From Patellaria atrata CBS 101060 (taxonomy: Eukaryota), in assembly GCA_010093705.1 (NCBI GenBank), contig MU006089.1, forward strand, positions 2,095,561 through 2,159,560: a DNA stretch of 64,000 nt, read 5' to 3'. Shown here one piece after another: positions 8,597 through 21,400 of the stretch (position 1 is the stretch's first letter; each line of letters begins with the position of its first letter). The position numbers and the translations under genes are program-made. A model generated the notes under the pieces. The model had not been told where the DNA came from, did not search any database, and saw only the letters and a list, made by a program, of their open reading frames with translations.

Positions 8597-10029
8597 CAAG
8601 ATCTTGGGGAAGGACATCAGCGCGGGAGCTTGGGCCGCCTACGCATTCTCAATATCTGCTTGTCTCGGACATCAAAAAATATTCATTCTCCACCTCTCAC
8701 ACCACTAAAATTTTCTCACTAATCAATGCCTTTCTATGTTCTCTAAACTTTCATCTCAGTGTCTGTGGTCTAGATGATGAGATGGAGAGCACACTATCTA
8801 TACACACAGTACAGATTTGGTTTGAATATTTGCCAGTCTCTTCTCGGCAATCGGCATGCCACGATACGTCTAAAGCTACGGTAGTAAGCTTTTCCGGCGA
8901 ACAATCATTTTTCAAAACTGCATCATGGAGGCCAGTCATGTTGAGATTTTGTTGTGCTTGTTCAGATATCAAGATATGATACTGAGTTGCCTTTAGTCAA
9001 GCCGACTACGACGTCCGGGATACTCGCTGCTATGACAGCTCGTTCACCTTGCGCGGATATTTCTGGTATCTTATGAGTCGACATTTCTGGACTATTGTCT
9101 TCTCACAGTACAGTACATAAACCGGCATACTGGCCAGTCCTGGTCGTTCATCGATCCTCAAGGCCCTGTACCAGTACGTCGTTGTACTGTACTGTACACT
9201 ACAGTACCATCGCTAGGCTCATCATGTTCTTCACTGGTCCTTATGGTCAACGACTCTGACCTCGTTCTGAGTGTCGGATACTTTGCAGCATACTAGAACT
9301 TTGTCGTTTTAAGGAAGCATATCTGATAGTGATCAGTTCAGCAGTCGGTTGATGCCTGGAGAGGATTGGGTGGTACTGTATCTTAGATCTGTATTTAGGT
9401 CTACCTGTAGCTAAAAGCATGAAAATCTTCACTCAGATGCAGATAGCAATATCTATTGCGTAAATATTATAGAAGAAGTAAATTATAAAGCTTACATTAT
9501 AAAGAGCATGAAATATTCCTGAAACAATTGCCAGTCTTTAATTTGCGGCTGCTCTGTTTCCGCCATATTGTAGCCAAGCTCCCATGAACCTGGCAGACAA
9601 GTGATGATCATCTCCGCTCCGCGCTCGACTCCCGTCATAACGCTGGGAAAGGCAACAAGCTACAAGTAGCACCTGTGCATATAGGTTTTAAACCTACTTT
9701 TCACTGTTTTCCAACGTATATCTCTACGCTCTTTGATTAACCTATTCTAACACGTTGCCCTAGTCATTCCTTCCATCGTCGACCACTCTGTAGCACCCTT
9801 CCTTACCACGGGGTCTAGCCTTCCTTTGCACTCCACCGTTCCGCCCCACACTACTCTTTCAGAGTACAATACCATAGTATACCTCATCAATCGCTTGATC
9901 AATGGCTAGATTATATGCACAATAAACTAACGGCGATAGACCACTACATAGAAGAGATGCGGTTGACTCGAAAAGAGATCTGGGCGATAAACAATACCGA
10001 CCTCTCGAGTCTGTCTCACGTTGCGCCTC

Positions 10030-13000
10030 ATGTCAGGCCAGGCAGAGACCCAGGCTACGGATCATAGCACACTCTATGTGCCTTCTAGGATTGGAAAAGA
10101 TGGGCGGTCTCTCTCCGCTGCCAGTATTTCCGGAGGTCTACGTGGACAATCGTATGCGACAACTGGACCGCCACCAGGAAGCTTCAGTTCCGAGCTTAGG
10201 TCTGCTGGGGCATCACGCAGCGAAACACCAAGGCCAGATTTTAGCGCTCATACAAGTTTCAAGGAAGAAGATGAACGTACAGCTTCAGAGCAAAGGCAGG
10301 CGGAACTCCGTGACCAGATCGATAAAGAGACGAAGATTAAGATAGGCTCGGAGAATCTCCTCGAAGCTCTCAACGCTAAGAATGCCAAACAAGCAAAGGA
10401 CCAGAAGCTACGCGTAGAAGCGGAATTGAACTCTTCGAATAGGAAGATTGAGCAATTGAAGCTTGGCTTAGAGGCTGAAATACAACGAGCGAAAGAGCCC
10501 CCTAATCCACCAGGTGGGAGGTTATCCTACCTTTTTCAGAAAGCGCCCGTACGGTCAGGTTCACGTCTAGCATTAAACGAAGATGTTGACGAAGATGTTG
10601 ACGAAGAAGAGGATGAATCGCCTACTTTCGTACTTGCAGAGATTCTACAAGCATTGGAAGCCGAGGGCATGCGACCGGACTACTATGTGGAACGCGCTAA
10701 TTCACTTGTTGATCTATTCAAACGACATCCAACGCTGAAATATGACCTCGCGTGGTCCATATTTGGGTTACGAATGCAGACAATGCTCCTCAGCGATAGT
10801 CGAGAGGTTGTGGCCGCTGGATATCGAGTCATGAGATATGCCATTGCCGATCGCAGGTCATTACAAACTATTCGAGCGCTACATACGGACTACCTTGTAA
10901 TTGTCTCTCTAGTCAAAGAAAGCAAAGCAAGTATCGAAAGAGAGCAAGCTTTGAAATTCGTGCGAGCTTTTCTTGACATCAAAGATGGTGTAAAGGAGAT
11001 ATCTTGTGCCGTCATACGAATTATTGCTGCTGTGGCAGAACATCCAGATGATCGGTTGAGAAGCATTTGTATCCTGACGCTCGCAGAGATCCTCGTCCGC
11101 GACCCAGCGTTGGTCGTAGCTGCAAGTGGCATCGGGACCCTCACTGAGGCTCTTGGTGAAGGTCATTATCACGCATCAGAGAGTTTGACGGGCGCTTTTC
11201 TTTTCCTGCTCGACTTACCTGATCGGCGCAAATACCTGAAATCTGGACACGAGCTTGAACTTCCATTTGCTGCTTTCACAGATTCTTCCGCAGGTCACGC
11301 ACATGAGGATAAACTAAAAGTAAATGCAAAAGTAATTGCAATGCTTTTACGAAGTTGGCCTGGTCTTATGACGCTTTCTATGAACAACTTCATGGCGATT
11401 AGATCTCTTCTAGCTTCTCTCTACATACCAACCCCCCATGTCCGCCACGTCCTGTTAGAACTTCTGATTGATATTCTTCGTATCAAATCACCATCGTGGT
11501 CTACTTCTTTCCTCGCTGGCAGGCGCTTGACGACTTACGGAAGAGTCACCAACCTCAGACCGGAAGGCAGTCGGGATGGCCCAACAGTGGAAACCGAAGA
11601 TGAATCAGAGAAGAGGAATTTGGTTGATCACTTCACCTCTGTCACCCTTGCCGTCTTTCTTCATGCGGGTCTACTACCTGCTTTGATGCATGCTGAAGAA
11701 GATGCTTTAAACCTGACCCTTAAACGAAAGACCACTCTACTACTTGGGGAGGTCTTAACAATGGCAAACCAGTTGCTTCCGAGCTCCTGGAGTGCAGAGC
11801 TCCAGGTACTTCCAGAATTACTACGGTCGGCCGCTAGATTCGGTGTTGAGGATCGTTTCATAGCTAGCAGTACAATATATCAAGTGGACAGTGTGAATCG
11901 AACATTATATCGGTTCAATCCGAATAATCCTGGTCATAAGAAGTCCAATTCTACAAACGACACGGATTCTAGCCAACGTCAACCGGAACAATCCAAAACA
12001 CCAATTGGTCCACAGGTTGATGAAGGCCAGTTTCGAACTATGATGCTCGATACACAGGTACTTAACACCGTAAATTTCACGAAGTGGAGGTGGGATATTA
12101 TCCAACAAATCATCGACGGCCCACTACTGAATTCCAAGCGTCTCGACGAAGCGATGCGTGTGACGAAGTTTGTTCATCGTGTGTTGGGCTTTTTCAGGCC
12201 GTTCAAATATCGGTTTTGTGAAGTTAAGAACACAAAGCCAAATCAACGATACGTAAGAGCTGGATGTGCTCTCATTTTAAGTCTTCTTCAGAATTCCGAG
12301 GGCGTACGATATCTAGCTGAAAGCAAACTTATCAGGCAATTGGCGGAATGTCTCTCACACTTTGATAGAATGAGTGGTCTAACCTCAGAGATGCCTTTGT
12401 TTACACCTCACAGAATGAACGAGACACTTACCGGGGGTTATTTTGCGATTCTAGGAGCAATGAGCAAAGATGCCCGGGGATTACAGATCTTGGAACGTTG
12501 GAAAGTCATTAACATGTTCTATCACATCATTGAATTGAGGGATCGGCCGGACTTGATCAAGGCATTGATATGTAATATGGACTACACCTTGGATGGACAT
12601 CCCCGCATCATTATATCAAAAGCTATGACTTCCTGCACAAAGGATATTCGGATATTCTCGACTCGCCTTCTTCGCAAATATGCTACCAAATCGTTACAGC
12701 CCTCCGAAAGCGGCGTTCCTGGGAGTGGGATAGCTGAATGGGCGATTCGCTTGCTTGTTACCCAACTCTACGATCCTGAGATAGAGGTATGTGAAGTCGC
12801 CATCAAAACCCTTGAAGAAGCTTGCAATCAACGGCACTCTCTCGAATATGTAGTCAAGTGCCGCCCGATGCTGGATCACTTGGGCGAAATTGGTGCTCCC
12901 TTACTTCTTCGGTTTTTGTCGACTTCAGTTGGCTATCATTATTTGGATGGATTGGACTACATTAACAAGGAGATGGACGATTGGTTTCTTGGACGTAATG

Positions 13001-14007
13001 ACACCTACGTTGCCTTAGTGGAAGCATCTCTAGCTCGAGCTCTTGCCGAAGTTCCAGACAAACCCCAACAACCTCAAAACACTTATGACGATGTTCCGGA
13101 ACACCACGACTATGGGATCGTACCGCCTCACTTCTATCGTGAGCTTACGCGCACAAGTGAGGGCTGCAAACTGTTGGAATCGAAAGGTCATTTCAATGAA
13201 TTTGTTAGCACGATCCGTGATTGCGGGCAAGAAGATGAGGATGCAGAGACCATCCTCAAAGTTAAAGGGTGTCTGTGGGCTGTTGGTAACGTAGGTTCTA
13301 TGGAACTTGGTGCGCCATTTTTGGAACAGAGTGATGTTGTCAAGTGGATCGTAGCTATTGCTGAAAAGTCTGAAGTCATGACACTTCGAGGTACCGCATT
13401 CTTTGTCCTCGGGTTAATCTCAAGGAGTCTACATGGGCAAGAGATTCTACTTGAGTACGGATGGGATGGTACGCACAATTCCATGGGCTATAGCCTCGGG
13501 TACTGCCTACCCTTAGACTTTCCGAAACTCTTCTCGGTATTATTAACTCAAAAATTTCCCTACAAGCAGGTGCTAATAGTATAGCAGATCAAACCTTGGG
13601 CAAACCAACCCAGTGATGTTTCATCGCGGAAGTTGCAGGTCAAACTGGTCGAGTCTGAAAAGGACGAGCTCAACACACGGATCTTGAAGCTTGTCACAGA
13701 TCTAGGAAACACGGTTCTAGCAAAGCGTGCTGCTAGCGACCTTCATCAGTAAGATTCCATCTAGATTCCAGAAGACTCGAAAGGAGCTAACTGGATTGGC
13801 AGAATAAAAGCGAAGAAGGCTCCTGGCTTTCAGAAACCAGCACTATTGCATAAAGTCATGAAGATATTGGAATCACATCACTTCCGACTACCAGTATGCC
13901 GTTTCGTCATAGATCTCTTCGACAAAGGGGTGATGAGACAAATAGTACTCGAAGAGGAAGAAGAAAGTGATGACGCCAGCGAAGAAGGTTCGGACGAGTC
14001 AGAGTAA
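10030..14007 (+). CDS. ste20: TORC2 subunit Rictor/Avo3/Ste20 (HR1 + RICTOR domains), 3 coding exons
   Basis: HR1 (IDKETKIKIGSENLLEAL), REVVAAGYRVMRY, FLAGRRLTTYGR, LLVTQLYDPEIEVCEVA, GCLWAVGNVGS, LRGTAFFVLGLIS. Introns 13537-13587 and 13749-13802. Confidence 0.95.
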
Positions 14008-15705
14008 TGGACCCAAGGATGGTGGTGGTGTTTGAGCACTTTAAGGCCTTTGGAGTCATAATACTATATAAACACAAGGACATATTCTTATTGAGCGGTT
14101 TGGCGTCAAGGAGGTGAAGGATATTTGTTCGGAAGCACAAAGGGTTTTGTTGTGTTCGAGTATTCGGAGTAGGGAGTCTAATCTATCATGCATCTGCGGG
14201 GGATGGGAAAAAAAAATGGCGCCGGTTTTGAAGTGGAGAAAGGTGTATGTTATGAGTTTGGGAACTAGTAGGAGCATTGGGCAGCTTGTTGAATGGTTCG
14301 ATTCGCTTTCCCTATCCTAATTATTCGATATCCAGCAGAAATTCGCGGGAGCAGAACCGTGGAAAGAGTGAGGCCTGAATACCGCACTCTCGGTTGAATG
14401 TGAAATGTTTTGAACCCATGGTCTCGGTTGACCTGTCAAAAACTTCAGTCCATTCTTAAAGTTTGACTACATATATCATCTCCACTAACTCTTTAGTGCG
14501 GCCCACCTGTGAGGAGGTATGTCCGAGAAGGCCCTCGATGTCTTATAAGAGTGGATATCTTTCTGCCGTATAACGCAACACGGAATTGAAGCAGCTATGC
14601 AGGAACAGAAGTGCTTACATATCCATCGAAGTGCGTACGGTATCAGCCTGAGGTGAGGTATTACGAGAGATGAGATGGGATTCGAACGACCTTCGGTTTA
14701 TTAGGAGGTTGCCGTGTGATGCAGAACACGAGGCGTAGAACTTAGTGCTACTCACTAGTCAACGTGGACAACACATGTTCAAAAGAAAACGGAGGCTAAT
14801 AATACCGTGGAGTAGACCTGTACTATACGGTTTGATGGATGGTAGTTGGGGATAGTTTTATGTTGTTGGAAGGGTTAGAAGGGGTTGGTGTGGCATAGTT
14901 TGAACGATATACAGGCCGAAATTCGATCTGAGGTTAGTCCAATCGGGTCAAGTCATCGACACTAAACTTTACACCAATCATCTTTGGTGGATGCCGTTCA
15001 AAGTCATGGGCAGGATGGAAATTCCTCGACACCGACAGGCGTTCTGTTACAGACTTACAAGTCGACCCGACAACCTTAAGCCTTGATGGGAAATGCATCC
15101 CATACCTTACAATACAAAGTTACACCTTATCGGCCGATCGCCCATGAATCCAGACGGGTAGACGCCAATAATGAGCCTCTATATGCCTCGTACGTCCGCC
15201 TGTCAGAATCATGTCGTCGTAGACTTTAATACCTTACCATCGCTACACCACCTTCCACAATCTCAGCAACCTCATCTTTTTTGCCCTTATTTCTCCGTCT
15301 ATACCCAGTTTTGCAGCCGTAAAACCTTTCATCTCATTCAAATAATTTGTGCCGGACTATGTACATGCGATCTCGACTTTCTTATTATATTTCAAAGCAT
15401 TCCTTTCATTCACTGTCATTGAATTAGTGGGTTTGCTCAGTTGTAAAAGATTTGTAAAAGTAGGTTAACGGCAAGGTAACCCGGCTGAAGTGGCGCGCAT
15501 ATGATATCAGTCTCGACACCTTCATTGCCATATTTCCACCTCACGACTATCCGACTCCTCGACCCTGCAGCCGCTTCCCGAACCGTTTCCGTCCCATTCT
15601 TCCCAGTCGTATCTACCTCATCTGGAATTCTACCACTCCGAGACACTCGAAGATACAATAAGGATATATGGAGGACGGGTTGGTGGAACCAACCATAAGC
15701 ACTGA

Positions 15706-17978
15706 ATGAATCTGCTGGAAAGCGTGGGCTTCTCTCTCATAGATAGCGAAGAGCTGTCATACGACGAGCTGCTGGCCTCGTCCAGATTCATGAGCGGTGA
15801 TGAGGCACGTGTCACGTCTCAGGATATCGTGGGACTCGACGCTCACGAAGATGCCAGAACTCTGGTCCGATTGATACAATGCTCTAAATGCTCCTTACCG
15901 TTCCGAATACCAATCACTTTACCTTGCGGTCATTCGCACTGCAGGGACTGCCTGCCCCAACCCCACCATCGGGAGAATATATCTTATCCGAATACGCCTG
16001 ATCGTCGCCACGGCGTGGTGTGTCCAGTGCAAACCTGCCAGCGCGAGCATCCCGTAGGAGAATGTGATGTGGACGTTACGCTGTCAAAGATCATGGAGGC
16101 TATAACTGATGTAACTGCAGAATATCAGCCAGCCTCGGAAGATACTCCAATGTTGTTGGAAGAAATAAAGCATTACCCACGCGCAGACTCCGTTCTCCCA
16201 GAAAAGGAAGAGGATAGCATGGAAACACCCGAGCCTAGATCACAAGTCCTAAACGGAGGAAGACTGGCGGCGACCCTCCGTTTCGCTCAGATGGGTTTTC
16301 TGGATTTCGAGGCAGAGGTCGGGTATCAGACGCTGTCGAAAGAAGGGGATGATTATAGACCGCTGGGTGAAAGGATACTGACACAATTTCGGGAATCCGT
16401 TTCTAAGGAACTAGATTGTCAAGTTTGTTACAACTTGATGTATGATCCTGTCACAACTCCCTGCGGCCATACGTTCTGTCGAAAGTGTCTAGTTAGAGTT
16501 CTTGATCACTCTAGTCACTGTCCTATCTGCCGTCGCACTCTCCCCATACCGCCGTCTTTAGATCGTCAACCCAGCAATCAACGATTAAAAAGTCTTCTTG
16601 TTGGTCTATGTCCGGATCTAGTTGCTGCTCGAGCAGAAGCAGTTGAACAGGAAGAGCGCGGAACTATCGGGGAATTGGACGTGCCGTTGTTCGTTTGCAC
16701 CCTCGGCTTCCCATCCATGCCGACGTTTCTTCATATTTTCGAACCCCGATACAGACTGATGATTCGGCGCGCGCTGGAAGGTAATCGTACCTTTGGTATG
16801 CTAATGTACAATCGTGCCGGTCAACCGCAAGGAGACCTGGGGAATACGCATTTCCTTCAATATGGAACGATGCTACGCATATTGAATGTGCAAATGCTAC
16901 CAGACGGTCGCAGTCTTATCGAATGCATCGGCACGACTCGCTTCAAAGTCCTTCGCTGGAGTCAGCTGGATGGATACATCGTTGGCAGTGTCGAGCGCAT
17001 TGAGGATGTTAGTCTTGCTGAAGAAGAGAGAATTGAAGCCGAAGAAACGTCCGTCGCAGCCCCAGCCCTCAACGCTCCACCCACACCGGATAATATCAGC
17101 ATCGATCCTTCAGTTCTCGTCAACAGACTCTCGACGAGAAGACTGCTGATACATGGCGTTGAGTTTATCGAAAAGATGCGGGCGAACAGCGCTCCTTGGC
17201 TCCACCAGAGGATCCTCGACGCCTACGGACAACCACCGGACGACCCTGCCCTCTTTCCTTATTGGTTTGCATGTGTGCTGCCCATCGCGGACGAAGAAAA
17301 GTACCTTTTACTTTCGACGACGAGTGTTCGCGAGAGGCTCAAGATCGTCGTTAATTGGATACGCAGGATCGAAGGTCAACGATGGTGAGTTAGCTTCCAT
17401 CCTCTTTTCAGCTATATCGTCTACCCACTATTCCCCTTTGCGGAGCTCCGCAACATCATCACCACTTCCACGCCACCCCTTTGCGTACTGTGCCTCTTGC
17501 CGTTCCTCATCATCATGTTCCCTCTTCCGTCGCCCCTCCGTCATTTTCTTCACGTTGTGGGCGCATGCACGAAAGAGGCACCTGCCTCCACACCCCCCTT
17601 CCCCCCTTCCGCGAAACAAGTCAATCCCCGCAGATCTCGATCTTGCATTCATCACTCGCATCTACGCCATCGCCACGTGCAAGAATGCGTGCCCGCCCCA
17701 CATACTTTGGCGTGACTCGCATTGTCGGGTCCTTCCCGCGCCGCCACCCAATTTTCCTTGCATCTAGACACCCTCACAAGAATTTCGATTCTCCTTCTGG
17801 CGTCTCTTTTCATTCACTATACCCAGTCTAGCTTCTCACCCCATACTCAACCTTCAGCCCTCAATCCACCACGCACAAACACAACACAGACATATCCCTT
17901 AGACGAAACATCCCCTTCCAACGCAATATCAACTGATGCGCTGACAGGTACGCCGGCTCCTCGTGCACAGTGCTCTAA
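15706..17978 (+). CDS. RING finger + LON substrate-binding domain E3 ligase (CrgA/LONRF-like); terminal exon 17948-17978 adds WYAGSSCTVL (CaaX)
   Basis: Two RINGs (CSKC...LPCGHSHCRDC; CQVC...TTPCGHTFCRKC...CPICR) and a LON-N domain (PTFLHIFEPRYRLMIRR). Donor TG|GTGAGT at 17385, acceptor CTGACAG ending 17947. Start may be 15706 or 15790. Confidence 0.88.
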
Positions 17979-18278
17979 GGCCCTTCCTCACCCCCCTTCG
18001 TCTGACGCCGCATATGTACCGTCATCAAGCTCCCCCTGCTCGCCGACGTCGTACCAGACACATCGCCGTCGCAGCCATCGTCGCGCTCACGCTTGCGTTC
18101 GCGCTCGCGCCTGCGTTCGCGCTCGCGCCTTCGATTGGCTTGCTCGTTTTCATCGTTTTTGTTACCGTGCTGGTTGAGTGGGGTTTACTTGTGGGATGAT
18201 GAGTTTGGGGTTGCGGGGGTTAACTAGGAAGGTATGCTGGGGGTTTTAGCTAAAGGTGGGTATGGTGGGTTGAGTTGG

Positions 18279-18413
18279 NNNNNNNNNNNNNNNNNNNNNN
18301 NNNNNNNNNNNNNNNNNNNNNNNNNNNNNNNNNNNNNNNNNNNNNNNNNNNNNNNNNNNNNNNNNNNNNNNNNNNNNNNNNNNNNNNNNNNNNNNNNNNN
18401 NNNNNNNNNNNNN
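18279..18413. other. Assembly gap (N run)
   Basis: Run of n flanked by G/T-rich sequence. Confidence 1.
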
Positions 18414-21400
18414 GTTTGACGGGGGGAATCTAGATATGGGCATTCTTGTGGTTGTTGTTGTGGGTGCATCTTGTGGTGTTGATGTCTCTGTATGTATCCC
18501 TGATTTTTTGGTCGACTCGTGTTTGATGGGTTGTGACGAGGGTGGTTGTAAATTATCAAAAGACTATCATATTTTTACACTTTTTTTTTTTTTTTTAGGT
18601 GTGGTATGTGGGATACAAGAGGTGAAGTTGTAGATTTTGACTTGCTAAAACGATATAGCGATTTTTGCTTTTGTTTTCGGCTTTTGATGTATACGATGTC
18701 TTGAAAAGTGGAAATATAAACCGTGGAGATGATACAAGCTCTTTTTGTACAGTATCGTGGAGGAGAAGTAAATTATAGCAGAAAATCGTACCGTGAAATC
18801 ACCGTTCGAACTCGCTCACGTACCTACAGTAAATTCTATCCCTCTACTCCGTATTCCAAACAGCTGGAAAAAATCCGATGCTGCACCGTTTCTACAATCT
18901 ATCTCTCCACATGGCTCTACGCGCTGCCGACTTACCTGGTAATACTAATTTTGAGATGTTCGTTCTGGAGTTCTCGGGGGGCAGATAATGGTGAATGAAG
19001 TGGATTTATACTTTAACTCTTTCCGTGTGTTATATCACTGGTTCCCTTTTTCTTTTTCTATTTTTTTTCTCCCCTGGGGTTGGAGTTGTGAGTATTTGTG
19101 GTTTTCCTGGCTGCTTTCCTTTCTCCGGAATTTTGCATTGCTTCGGAATGGACCTGGTTCCTTCATTTCCAGTCTCGCGGTCTCGAGTCCTTATTCTTTC
19201 TCCCGAATTCCCTATGAACGAATTCCTCAGGAATCTTCCTCTTCACGAGATTTTGCCTTTCCTCCTGCGTGAAGTTAGCCCCTTCGCTTGCCATCGGAAA
19301 CCCTAGCCGGGAAAAAACCAAGGATTTCGGGAAAATTGTCCAAGTCCGTATCGACGTACAGTACCTCTCTGCAGAAGCGATATGTTGGTAAGGGGCCAGC
19401 CCCAAGATACCTAGCCAGTACATTTCGAAAAGTGAATCCTCTGCAGCGAAAAGCGGGAAAGGCGCCTGAAAAATGCCATGATAAGGGTCCCTTCCTTTCT
19501 TCAAAACTCCCGTGGATTTTGCCCTGCATTCGTTGCTCTCAGAAACCAGATACGAGGATCCTTAGTTCCAGTGCTCGAGATGCACTTTCGTGAATGGCAT
19601 GGCGGGGTTAGGAAATAGGAGATAGTGCTGCGAAGAGTGAAGATACCTACCTGTCCGGTGGGAAGTCGGTGTTAGTCAACGGGTGCGAAAGCTGCTGCAT
19701 GAAGAGTAATCAAAATATCGTCTTTTGCTCTTTTGTACCCTTTCCCTATGTTTTGTCGGTGTCGTGGACCGCTAGTTTCTCGCTGGTCGTTATTACGAGG
19801 TGACCAGTCAGCTCCCTCGACAACCTCTTGAAGCGGTCTACCTTGCATCGCAGCTCCCTCGCACCGCCAAACTGCAACAAACCCACACCGAAGAGATCCA
19901 AAGGGTAACCAAAATTCTGAAGCCGAATGAAAGACAAAATGGGATATCCTCGACTGTCTCGCCATGAGATCGAGCGATCGGGCGATCGAGCGGGTTTATC
20001 TCCAACAAAAGCTCTCGCTTTTTAGGGGTCTCCGAAGGATTCTTGTATGAGGGGAAACTTGCATCGTTCATGCTGTTTCTCACATTTTGAGAGGATCTCC
20101 AGGGTCTTCATAAGGGTTTCGTCGCCCGCCTCTCTACGACTCTTTTGGGAAACTCCACGCTCGCGGTACAGTACTGGCGAAAGGTTAAGATTTTGGGGGT
20201 CCGGCCACCGGTTCGCGTCGAAGAATGAGTGTGGGGATGAACATGCTCGACATGGACTTCGGACCTCCACGTGCGCGGGCCGTGTTGCGGGGCCAAGTCG
20301 AACGGTTTACCCGCCAGGATGATCTGAAGGTCCTATACTTTCCTGTACCGTCGATTTGGATGAAGCCAAGCTGACGCGATTGCATGCGTCGGGGTATATC
20401 TACACAATTGATCGTAAGCGGAGTTGATGAGGTGGGACAACTGGGTTTAGGAATAGCTTGTCTCGAGTAACATACAGCTACATTTACACTGTATCCTCCT
20501 ACCTGGTCTAATTTTTTCGTCCACACTTGGCGTCTTGTTCCTGTCCCTGGGCAATATATTTTGTTATGACCGAGATGTGAGCCGGCACAAGTCCGCAATC
20601 GTGAGAGAAGGAACAATTACCATAATGCAGCATATGCAAGGGATGTTGATAGAACTCCTGCATTAACGATCTTAGGATCACGTTTTCGAAGAAAAATGTG
20701 TGTATCAGTAGAACTAAACTACCCCACGGCACGAGTGCTGCAAAAATAGCCAACCTTTTAATAAGAATCGCAAGTTGTAGTTCTACGGCGTTGTCGTGGC
20801 TTTTCAATAACAGTCCTGCCGAGGTAGCGAGGGAAAGTTTTTCTAGAAGAACGCTAGAAAACGTCCACCATTGCTTGAAGGTCGCTTTTACGAGGTAGCG
20901 TCGCAATGTCGCAACCTCTACAATGATGCTAAAGAGGTAAAGCTCTAATCTCCTCGATACGTGATTCAACGTTTCACTCAATATGACTGGTCGGACATGC
21001 CGAGTGAGGCTGAAGCACCATCAGATTATGGAGTGGATCGAAGAGGATGATTAAGAAGCCACATCAAAGGGTAGGCGGTGTGTCTCGAGAGTGTGGACTG
21101 GGTCAACATTCCCAATTCAGCTGACTGATTTTGCTTGTCTACTTTCACTGGACGGTAGTAGATTATTGGGGATACGATGCTGGATGAGAGCATTGGCCAT
21201 CCAGCCAGCCTTGTGGGTGCCAGGCTTGCCAGCTCAGAGTGTCTTTGTCTCGTCTCTGCCAAAATTGACCATTAACAATCGACAAAGCCACCAGAAACCC
21301 CTGGTCATTCGTGCTTGCAATTCACCTCTTGCCCATCTCGTTGGGATCAAGGTCCAACTTTCCACTCTGTCGGTTAAGTTTGTGTGAAATTGGGCTGCAC

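Follow-up and report, generated by a model that had tools for sequence, protein, structure and literature searches.

A candidate choice between prenyl and transmembrane anchors at the terminal intron of a CarS/CrgA-type ubiquitin ligase gene in Patellaria atrata and its relatives

Can a single terminal intron provide a RING-LON ubiquitin ligase of Patellaria atrata with soluble, prenylated and membrane-embedded C-termini, and by what route would the membrane-embedded one be reached? The gene lies in a window of 64,000 nucleotides, the whole stretch of DNA that was analysed, and its coding part, terminal intron and last exon are the following.

15706..17384, + strand: main coding exon, encoding two RING fingers and a LON substrate-binding domain (Pfam), the CarS/CrgA/LONRF architecture
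17385..17390, + strand: donor GTGAGT, phase 2, shared in position by 65 intron-bearing relatives; if it is left unspliced, Trp560 is completed and TGA follows at 17386-17388
17385..17947, + strand: terminal intron, 563 nt, pyrimidine-rich, without an internal YAG that has CTRAY 6-30 nt upstream
17948..17978, + strand: CaaX exon, nine residues ending CTVL, with the stop TAA at 17976-17978 followed by GGC; used in the NCBI model P0002

The open reading frame 15706-17388 has 560 codons and Trp560 as its last residue. Searches against Pfam placed zf-C3HC4_2 in two stretches (best 238-275) and LON_substr_bdg at 326-553 (E 4e-35), which bears out the class named in the preliminary description, a RING-LON E3 ligase; members have N-terminal C3HC4 RING finger(s) and a C-terminal LON domain. 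Judged by these domains the gene is a RING-RING-LON ubiquitin ligase of the CarS/CrgA/LONRF type, and its architecture, its 3' intron and its presence in one full-length copy in a search of its own genome suggest orthology with CarS/CrgA. Two DNA runs compared with the assembly over 13000-18279 gave no differing letters and no indels, although they may be the assembly's own source and are thus not independent; their contigs are DNA-like, free of joints and uninformative on splicing. The gene upstream (window 9991-14007), which we take to be one resembling the TORC2 subunit Rictor/Ste20, has short introns near its 3' end. The RING-RING-LON architecture is that of CarS, CrgA, PTR1 and LONRF in the available text of PMC13123865, and the role given for characterised fungal members is repression of carotenoid or light responses (available parts of PMC13123865, PMC9581392 and PMC5715946); by analogy with those members the present gene may be credited with E3 activity and a similar repressive role.

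Relatives were taken from the best 80 of 489 related metagenome stretches, and the dropping of L040, whose frame breaks before the end, left 79. The intron occupies the same place in 65 of these 79, and among 41 orthologous introns measured the window's has the greatest length, the median in relatives being 230 nt (best 80 of 489). It had been described as roughly ten times the typical length, which agrees with the 54 nt of the upstream gene's last intron. Left unspliced, 56 of the 65 intron-bearing loci stop immediately, while the other nine run on into unrelated tails (again among the best 80 of 489). Because such a stop follows from the GTRAG donor consensus it needs no special selection, and comparison of the loci suggests that it is largely a by-product of the phase-2 donor. 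As to the soluble form proposed beforehand, the stop inside the donor is real, and regulated retention has been published for Fusarium carS. In F. fujikuroi carS, as far as the available text of PMC9581392 goes, a 3'-terminal intron is retained with a stop at its start, and more so at 37-42 C; its two alternative 3' splice sites lie 168 nt apart and lead to mutually exclusive exons. The present locus is like carS in its RING-RING-LON domains, in a 3'-terminal intron that on retention ends the frame at once and, as coding potential, in a pair of 3' splice sites with three C-termini; different localisation of the carS C-termini is a suggestion of the authors of that paper.

Other events at the intron were considered. 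No proximal exon with a branch motif was found inside the window intron or in 18414-19500; the N gap at 18280-18413 could hide one. The gap begins 80 nt past the stop of the hydrophobic tail described below, and one DNA contig runs on from there into G/T-rich sequence. A tandem donor at +4 was rejected as a route to a helix, since an in-frame stop comes first and lies in a poor readthrough context, and no phase-0 donor was seen by eye. L013 and L016 have a conserved proximal acceptor with a branch motif at intron position 59, which would yield a short end without CaaX.

Splicing from 17384 to 17948, which had been read as giving a CaaX end, is supported by conservation, by the NCBI model and by spliced-looking contigs of relatives. 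The model P0002, from Patellaria atrata, is 100% identical, has 569 residues and reaches CTVL through the 17948 exon. A pattern search found the CaaX exon in 62 distinct relative sequences among the best 80 of 489, and gave no match in seven loci, three of which are too short. By eye L051 has CaaX, TGA-CTA and a helix; L066 has its CaaX cysteine replaced and keeps TGA-CTA with a two-helix extension (after 4452); in L079 neither pattern search nor eye found a CaaX exon, and the separate inspection by eye, beyond L051, left L052 aside. Fourteen of the 79 relatives are contiguous across the junction (best 80 of 489). Six belong to one lineage that has lost the intron and has the CaaX end only (five long genomic contigs and L068), and the other eight are short, transcript-like contigs, one of which, L057, is 99% identical to the intron-bearing L058; the CaaX junction is found in seven of these eight and a proximal acidic exon in one (L053). 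The intron-less lineage (L032, L033, L036, L037, L042 and L068) combines its CaaX end with TGA-CTG and has kept an in-frame helix. Among 174 homologous protein models, a comparison that leaves out isoforms inside the 90% clusters of ten homologues, a CaaX-like box forms the C-terminus of 17, and the tryptophan is the last residue of 124, for the most part because callers that leave the intron unspliced stop there. The view that the CaaX exon is the conserved main product is thus strongly supported by sequence comparison. A CaaL C-terminus is normally a substrate of geranylgeranyltransferase-I, and by the established CaaX rules the protein is probably geranylgeranylated.

What follows the CaaX stop differs between the window and most relatives. 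The stop is TGA in 59 of 62 distinct relatives and TGA-CT in 56 of them (best 80 of 489), against a crude background of 4/60 and 0/99 for TGA-CT at the stops of long open reading frames. Past TGA-CT, a 15-residue hydropathy of at least 2.0 is reached in frame 0 in 47 of the 56, and in one each in frames +1 and +2 (same best 80 of 489). In 15 related pairs, which share members and from which two further pairs were left out as too divergent, substitutions in the extension fall on codon positions 1, 2 and 3 in the proportion 51/12/91, with 74 synonymous changes as against 31 non-synonymous. In Ustilago UGA-CU is sufficient for readthrough (available text of PMC4207609). Such strong conservation points to a readthrough isoform in the relatives, in which the CaaX box would be buried and a helix added. 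The window has no TGA-CT stop with an in-frame extension of this kind: its TAA-GGC is not a readthrough context, and the frame continues for only 8 codons to the next stop. Long two-helix extensions occur in L020, L031, L062, L064 and L072 as well.

A hydrophobic frame is present in the window nonetheless, shifted by +2 relative to the CaaX frame.

17968..17970, + strand: candidate alternative acceptor CAG (+23), the first AG past the CaaX acceptor, which would open the hydrophobic frame
17971..18199, + strand: hydrophobic tail in the +2 frame, with a basic cluster at 18041-18058, an apolar stretch at 18059-18196 and a stop at 18197-18199

The AG at 17969-17970 leads into the open reading frame 17945-18199, and an AAG at +32 (17980 junction) opens the same frame. 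The apolar stretch has 46 mostly apolar residues with a best 19-residue Kyte-Doolittle mean of 2.68, which suffices to span a membrane, and contains an in-frame tandem duplication of 18 nt (18098-18133). Dinucleotide shuffles of 17971-18279 matched its hydrophobicity in frame in none of 2000 cases and in any frame in 2 of 2000. The donor stop, the CaaX box and the +23 hydrophobic frame are all real in the sequence, as coding potential. In Pfam the tail matched fatty acid desaturase below the cut-off (E 0.009), which was put down to hydrophobic bias, and no stable RNA structure was found at the acceptor (z +0.75). A membrane tail of this kind, joined by splicing, occurs in 0 of the 174 homologous protein models, most of which were made by callers that leave minor isoforms out. 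The membrane form proposed in the preliminary description fares well in one respect, a hydrophobic tail behind the CaaX exon being conserved throughout the family, and less well in another, as most relatives would reach that tail by readthrough and not by splicing. Conservation of the exact +23 acceptor together with a hydrophobic frame did not hold up: in none of the four relatives with a +23 AG, nor in the one with a shifted equivalent, does that AG open a membrane helix (best 80 of 489).

Seven sequences are without TGA-CT, namely the window, L006, L013, L015, L016, L018 and L075 (best 80 of 489 and the window). L018 has TGA-CA with its helix in frame and L075 has no helix, while the helix lies in the +2 frame in the window, L013, L015 and L016. 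Its hydrophobicity was equalled in 5/1000 shuffles for L013, 26/1000 for L015 and 8/1000 for L016, as compared with the 0/2000 of the window. The tails of L013, L015 and L016 have a recognisable peptide in common. L013 and L016 differ at 7, 3 and 16 sites by codon position, over a span anchored by hand on the shared motif, and 11 of 14 identical residues are on different codons; because the differences are rich in third positions the +2 frame of these three loci looks translated. The window tail has no clear sequence likeness to theirs, and an HMM of three tails gave only two weak matches among representatives, both repetitive and unrelated. A quick tree, from which no order of events is claimed, places L013, L015 and L016 near Venturia/Tothia and Aulographum, within a group of 29 rows that takes in the window, those relatives, and Botryosphaeriales and Pleosporales-like loci, the latter two being readthrough-type. 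The shifted tail is known from three lineages only.

It is at the acceptor that these loci have a second feature in common.

17933..17937, + strand: upstream, weaker branch motif CTGAT, branch A at 17936, 11 nt from the CaaX acceptor
17941..17945, + strand: second, consensus branch motif CTGAC, branch A at 17944, abutting the CaaX acceptor

The weak upstream CTGAT recurs in L006, L013, L015 and L016, and a consensus CTRAC abutting the acceptor is found in five of the seven non-readthrough sequences (the window, L006, L013, L015 and L016) as compared with 1 of 34 readthrough loci (best 80 of 489; Fisher p 1.6e-4, kinship ignored). The second branch point is 3 nt from the CaaX AG and 26 nt from the next AG (17970). 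In 464 kb of the window's own genome, 46 frame-supported candidate introns, a heuristic and noisy set, gave a modal distance from branch to AG of 10-11 nt, with values of 5 nt or less in 4/46 and of at least 26 nt in 7/46. The 26 nt between the second branch A and the AG at 17970 fall, unfavourably for splicing to that AG, at the upper end of the range in this genome, where the first AG is as distant in 1/46 candidate introns.

These features suggest a scheme in which the main mRNA would be spliced from 17384 to 17948 through the upstream branch point and would encode the CaaL-ended, prenylated protein, while some transcripts may keep the intron and end at Trp560, as in Fusarium carS. Filamentous ascomycetes would in addition make a membrane-inserted form, no longer terminated by CaaX and extended by a hydrophobic helix, in most lineages by readthrough of the TGA-CT stop. 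In Patellaria atrata the leaky stop appears to have gone, and spliceosomes using the second branch point would move on to the AG at 17970, and so into the hydrophobic frame, because the consensus branch point is too near the CaaX acceptor. The product would presumably be a minor isoform, a tail-anchored or hairpin-anchored ligase. That readthrough has been replaced by alternative 3' splicing in the shifted-frame lineages has, from the sequences compared, about an even chance of being correct. The wider proposal is more tentative, and falls somewhat short of even: that CarS/CrgA-type ligases of filamentous ascomycetes have a conserved choice between prenyl and transmembrane anchors by interchangeable means (for most lineages readthrough at UGA-CU, for those related to Patellaria, Venturia and Aulographum a splice shift at a double branch point), which together with retention would give soluble, prenylated and integral-membrane forms.

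Alternative 3' sites are used at the same intron in relatives (the proximal acidic exon of L053 and P0120). In the window (CAG at +23) and in L013 and L016 (GAG at +11) the helix frame is entered at the first AG past the CaaX acceptor; in L015 the first such AG (AAG at +12) keeps the CaaX frame, and the helix is entered only from a GAG at +32. The helix frame behind the candidate alternative acceptor recurs in L013 and L016, the position of that acceptor differs, and L015 and L006 are outside the first-AG rule. The need for a GAG acceptor makes the route in L013 and L016 count against the splice reading, RAG acceptors together making up 5.69% of Fusarium introns (available text of PMC5677156).

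Another reading is that Patellaria atrata has lost the membrane isoform and retains only CaaX splicing and intron retention, the hydrophobic frame being a relic in decay or having arisen by chance in a 3' UTR that is rich in T/C and partly repeated. Much in the window would suit it: the leaky stop is missing, the tail is much longer than and unlike those of relatives and consists in part of the 18-nt duplication, the +23 AG stems from Thr-Val codons and opens no helix in the relatives that have it, hydrophobic frames occur by background at 2-5 of 99 open reading frame ends in the same genome, and L075 manages without any such tail. This reading is nevertheless considered unlikely, if by no means negligible, as no shuffle out of 2000 matched the tail in frame, as L013, L015 and L016 share its frame, lost stop context and double branch point, and as the duplication preserves the frame. 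Less probable again is translation of the +2 helix by some other route, either as a small membrane peptide through re-initiation at an ATG after the stop or as a fusion through frameshifting or another splice. In-frame ATGs do come soon after the stop, at 18014 in the window and likewise in L015 and L016, the coding signature of L013, L015 and L016 bears on translation and not on route, and L015 breaks the first-AG rule; on the other hand, L013 lacks an ATG in that frame, Ile taking the place of the Met of L015 and L016, no slippery sequence common to the loci was seen at the stop by eye, the ancestral arrangement is a fused tail, and the double branch point would be left unexplained.

A shift of the membrane tail from readthrough to splicing would have parallels elsewhere in fungi. 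Freitag et al. (2012) reportedly described cryptic targeting there by readthrough or alternative splicing. The present case would resemble it in having a concealed C-terminal signal to which some species gain access by readthrough and others by alternative splicing (available text of PMC4207609), and is unlike the known examples there, peroxisomal PTS1 signals on enzymes, in that an E3 ligase would exchange a prenylation box for a membrane helix. CrgA of Mucor circinelloides has the same domains and a C-terminal isoprenylation site (PMC5715946, from its available text), and PTR1 of Xanthophyllomyces and LONRF1-2 have the same architecture (PMC13123865, likewise). The accessible part of the CrgA review (PMC5715946) describes the isoprenylation site as absent in CarS, whereas the CaaX exon is general in the ascomycete loci here. 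Unlike the carS acceptors, 168 nt apart, the second acceptor here would sit 23 nt inside the CaaX exon, and the carS account, in the portion of PMC9581392 available, mentions no CaaX, readthrough or membrane tail. No transmembrane isoform of CrgA, PTR1 or LONRF was found in the accessible text of PMC5715946 and PMC13123865, and no earlier report of a readthrough or transmembrane isoform of such ligases in the open literature searched, figures aside. Three C-termini from one terminal intron were thus already known in outline, as were the retained and prenylated forms and the prenylation of CrgA; the new element is that the tail appears to have moved from readthrough to a shifted frame that lies behind a double branch point.

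If true, the keeping of a tail through a change from readthrough to splicing would extend the principle known from peroxisomal enzymes to membrane anchors. Carotenoid, sterol and light responses are under the control of CarS, CrgA and PTR1, which serve as targets in strains that produce pigments. The membrane form is absent from gene models, as the CaaX form often is, so that C-terminal tags and truncations may probe the wrong isoform. A switch between prenyl group and helix on a ligase that governs isoprenoids could, as speculation, couple its location to prenyl supply.

Two further variants were seen among the relatives. An acidic, Ser/Asp-rich end arises from a proximal exon that is spliced through an AAG acceptor in L053 (1987-2075) and P0120; no counterpart was found in the window. 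Acidic tails are also present in several lichen-fungus models, the listed set being L053, the intron of L050, P0046, P0055, P0087, P0120 and P0159. L006 (4860-5050) has the double branch point and a TAA stop, with a helix-like stretch in the +1 frame behind a TGA-CTG of its own; this stretch can be entered from a CAG located 14 nt before the CaaX acceptor. The L006 arrangement could be either an intermediate state or an assembly indel.
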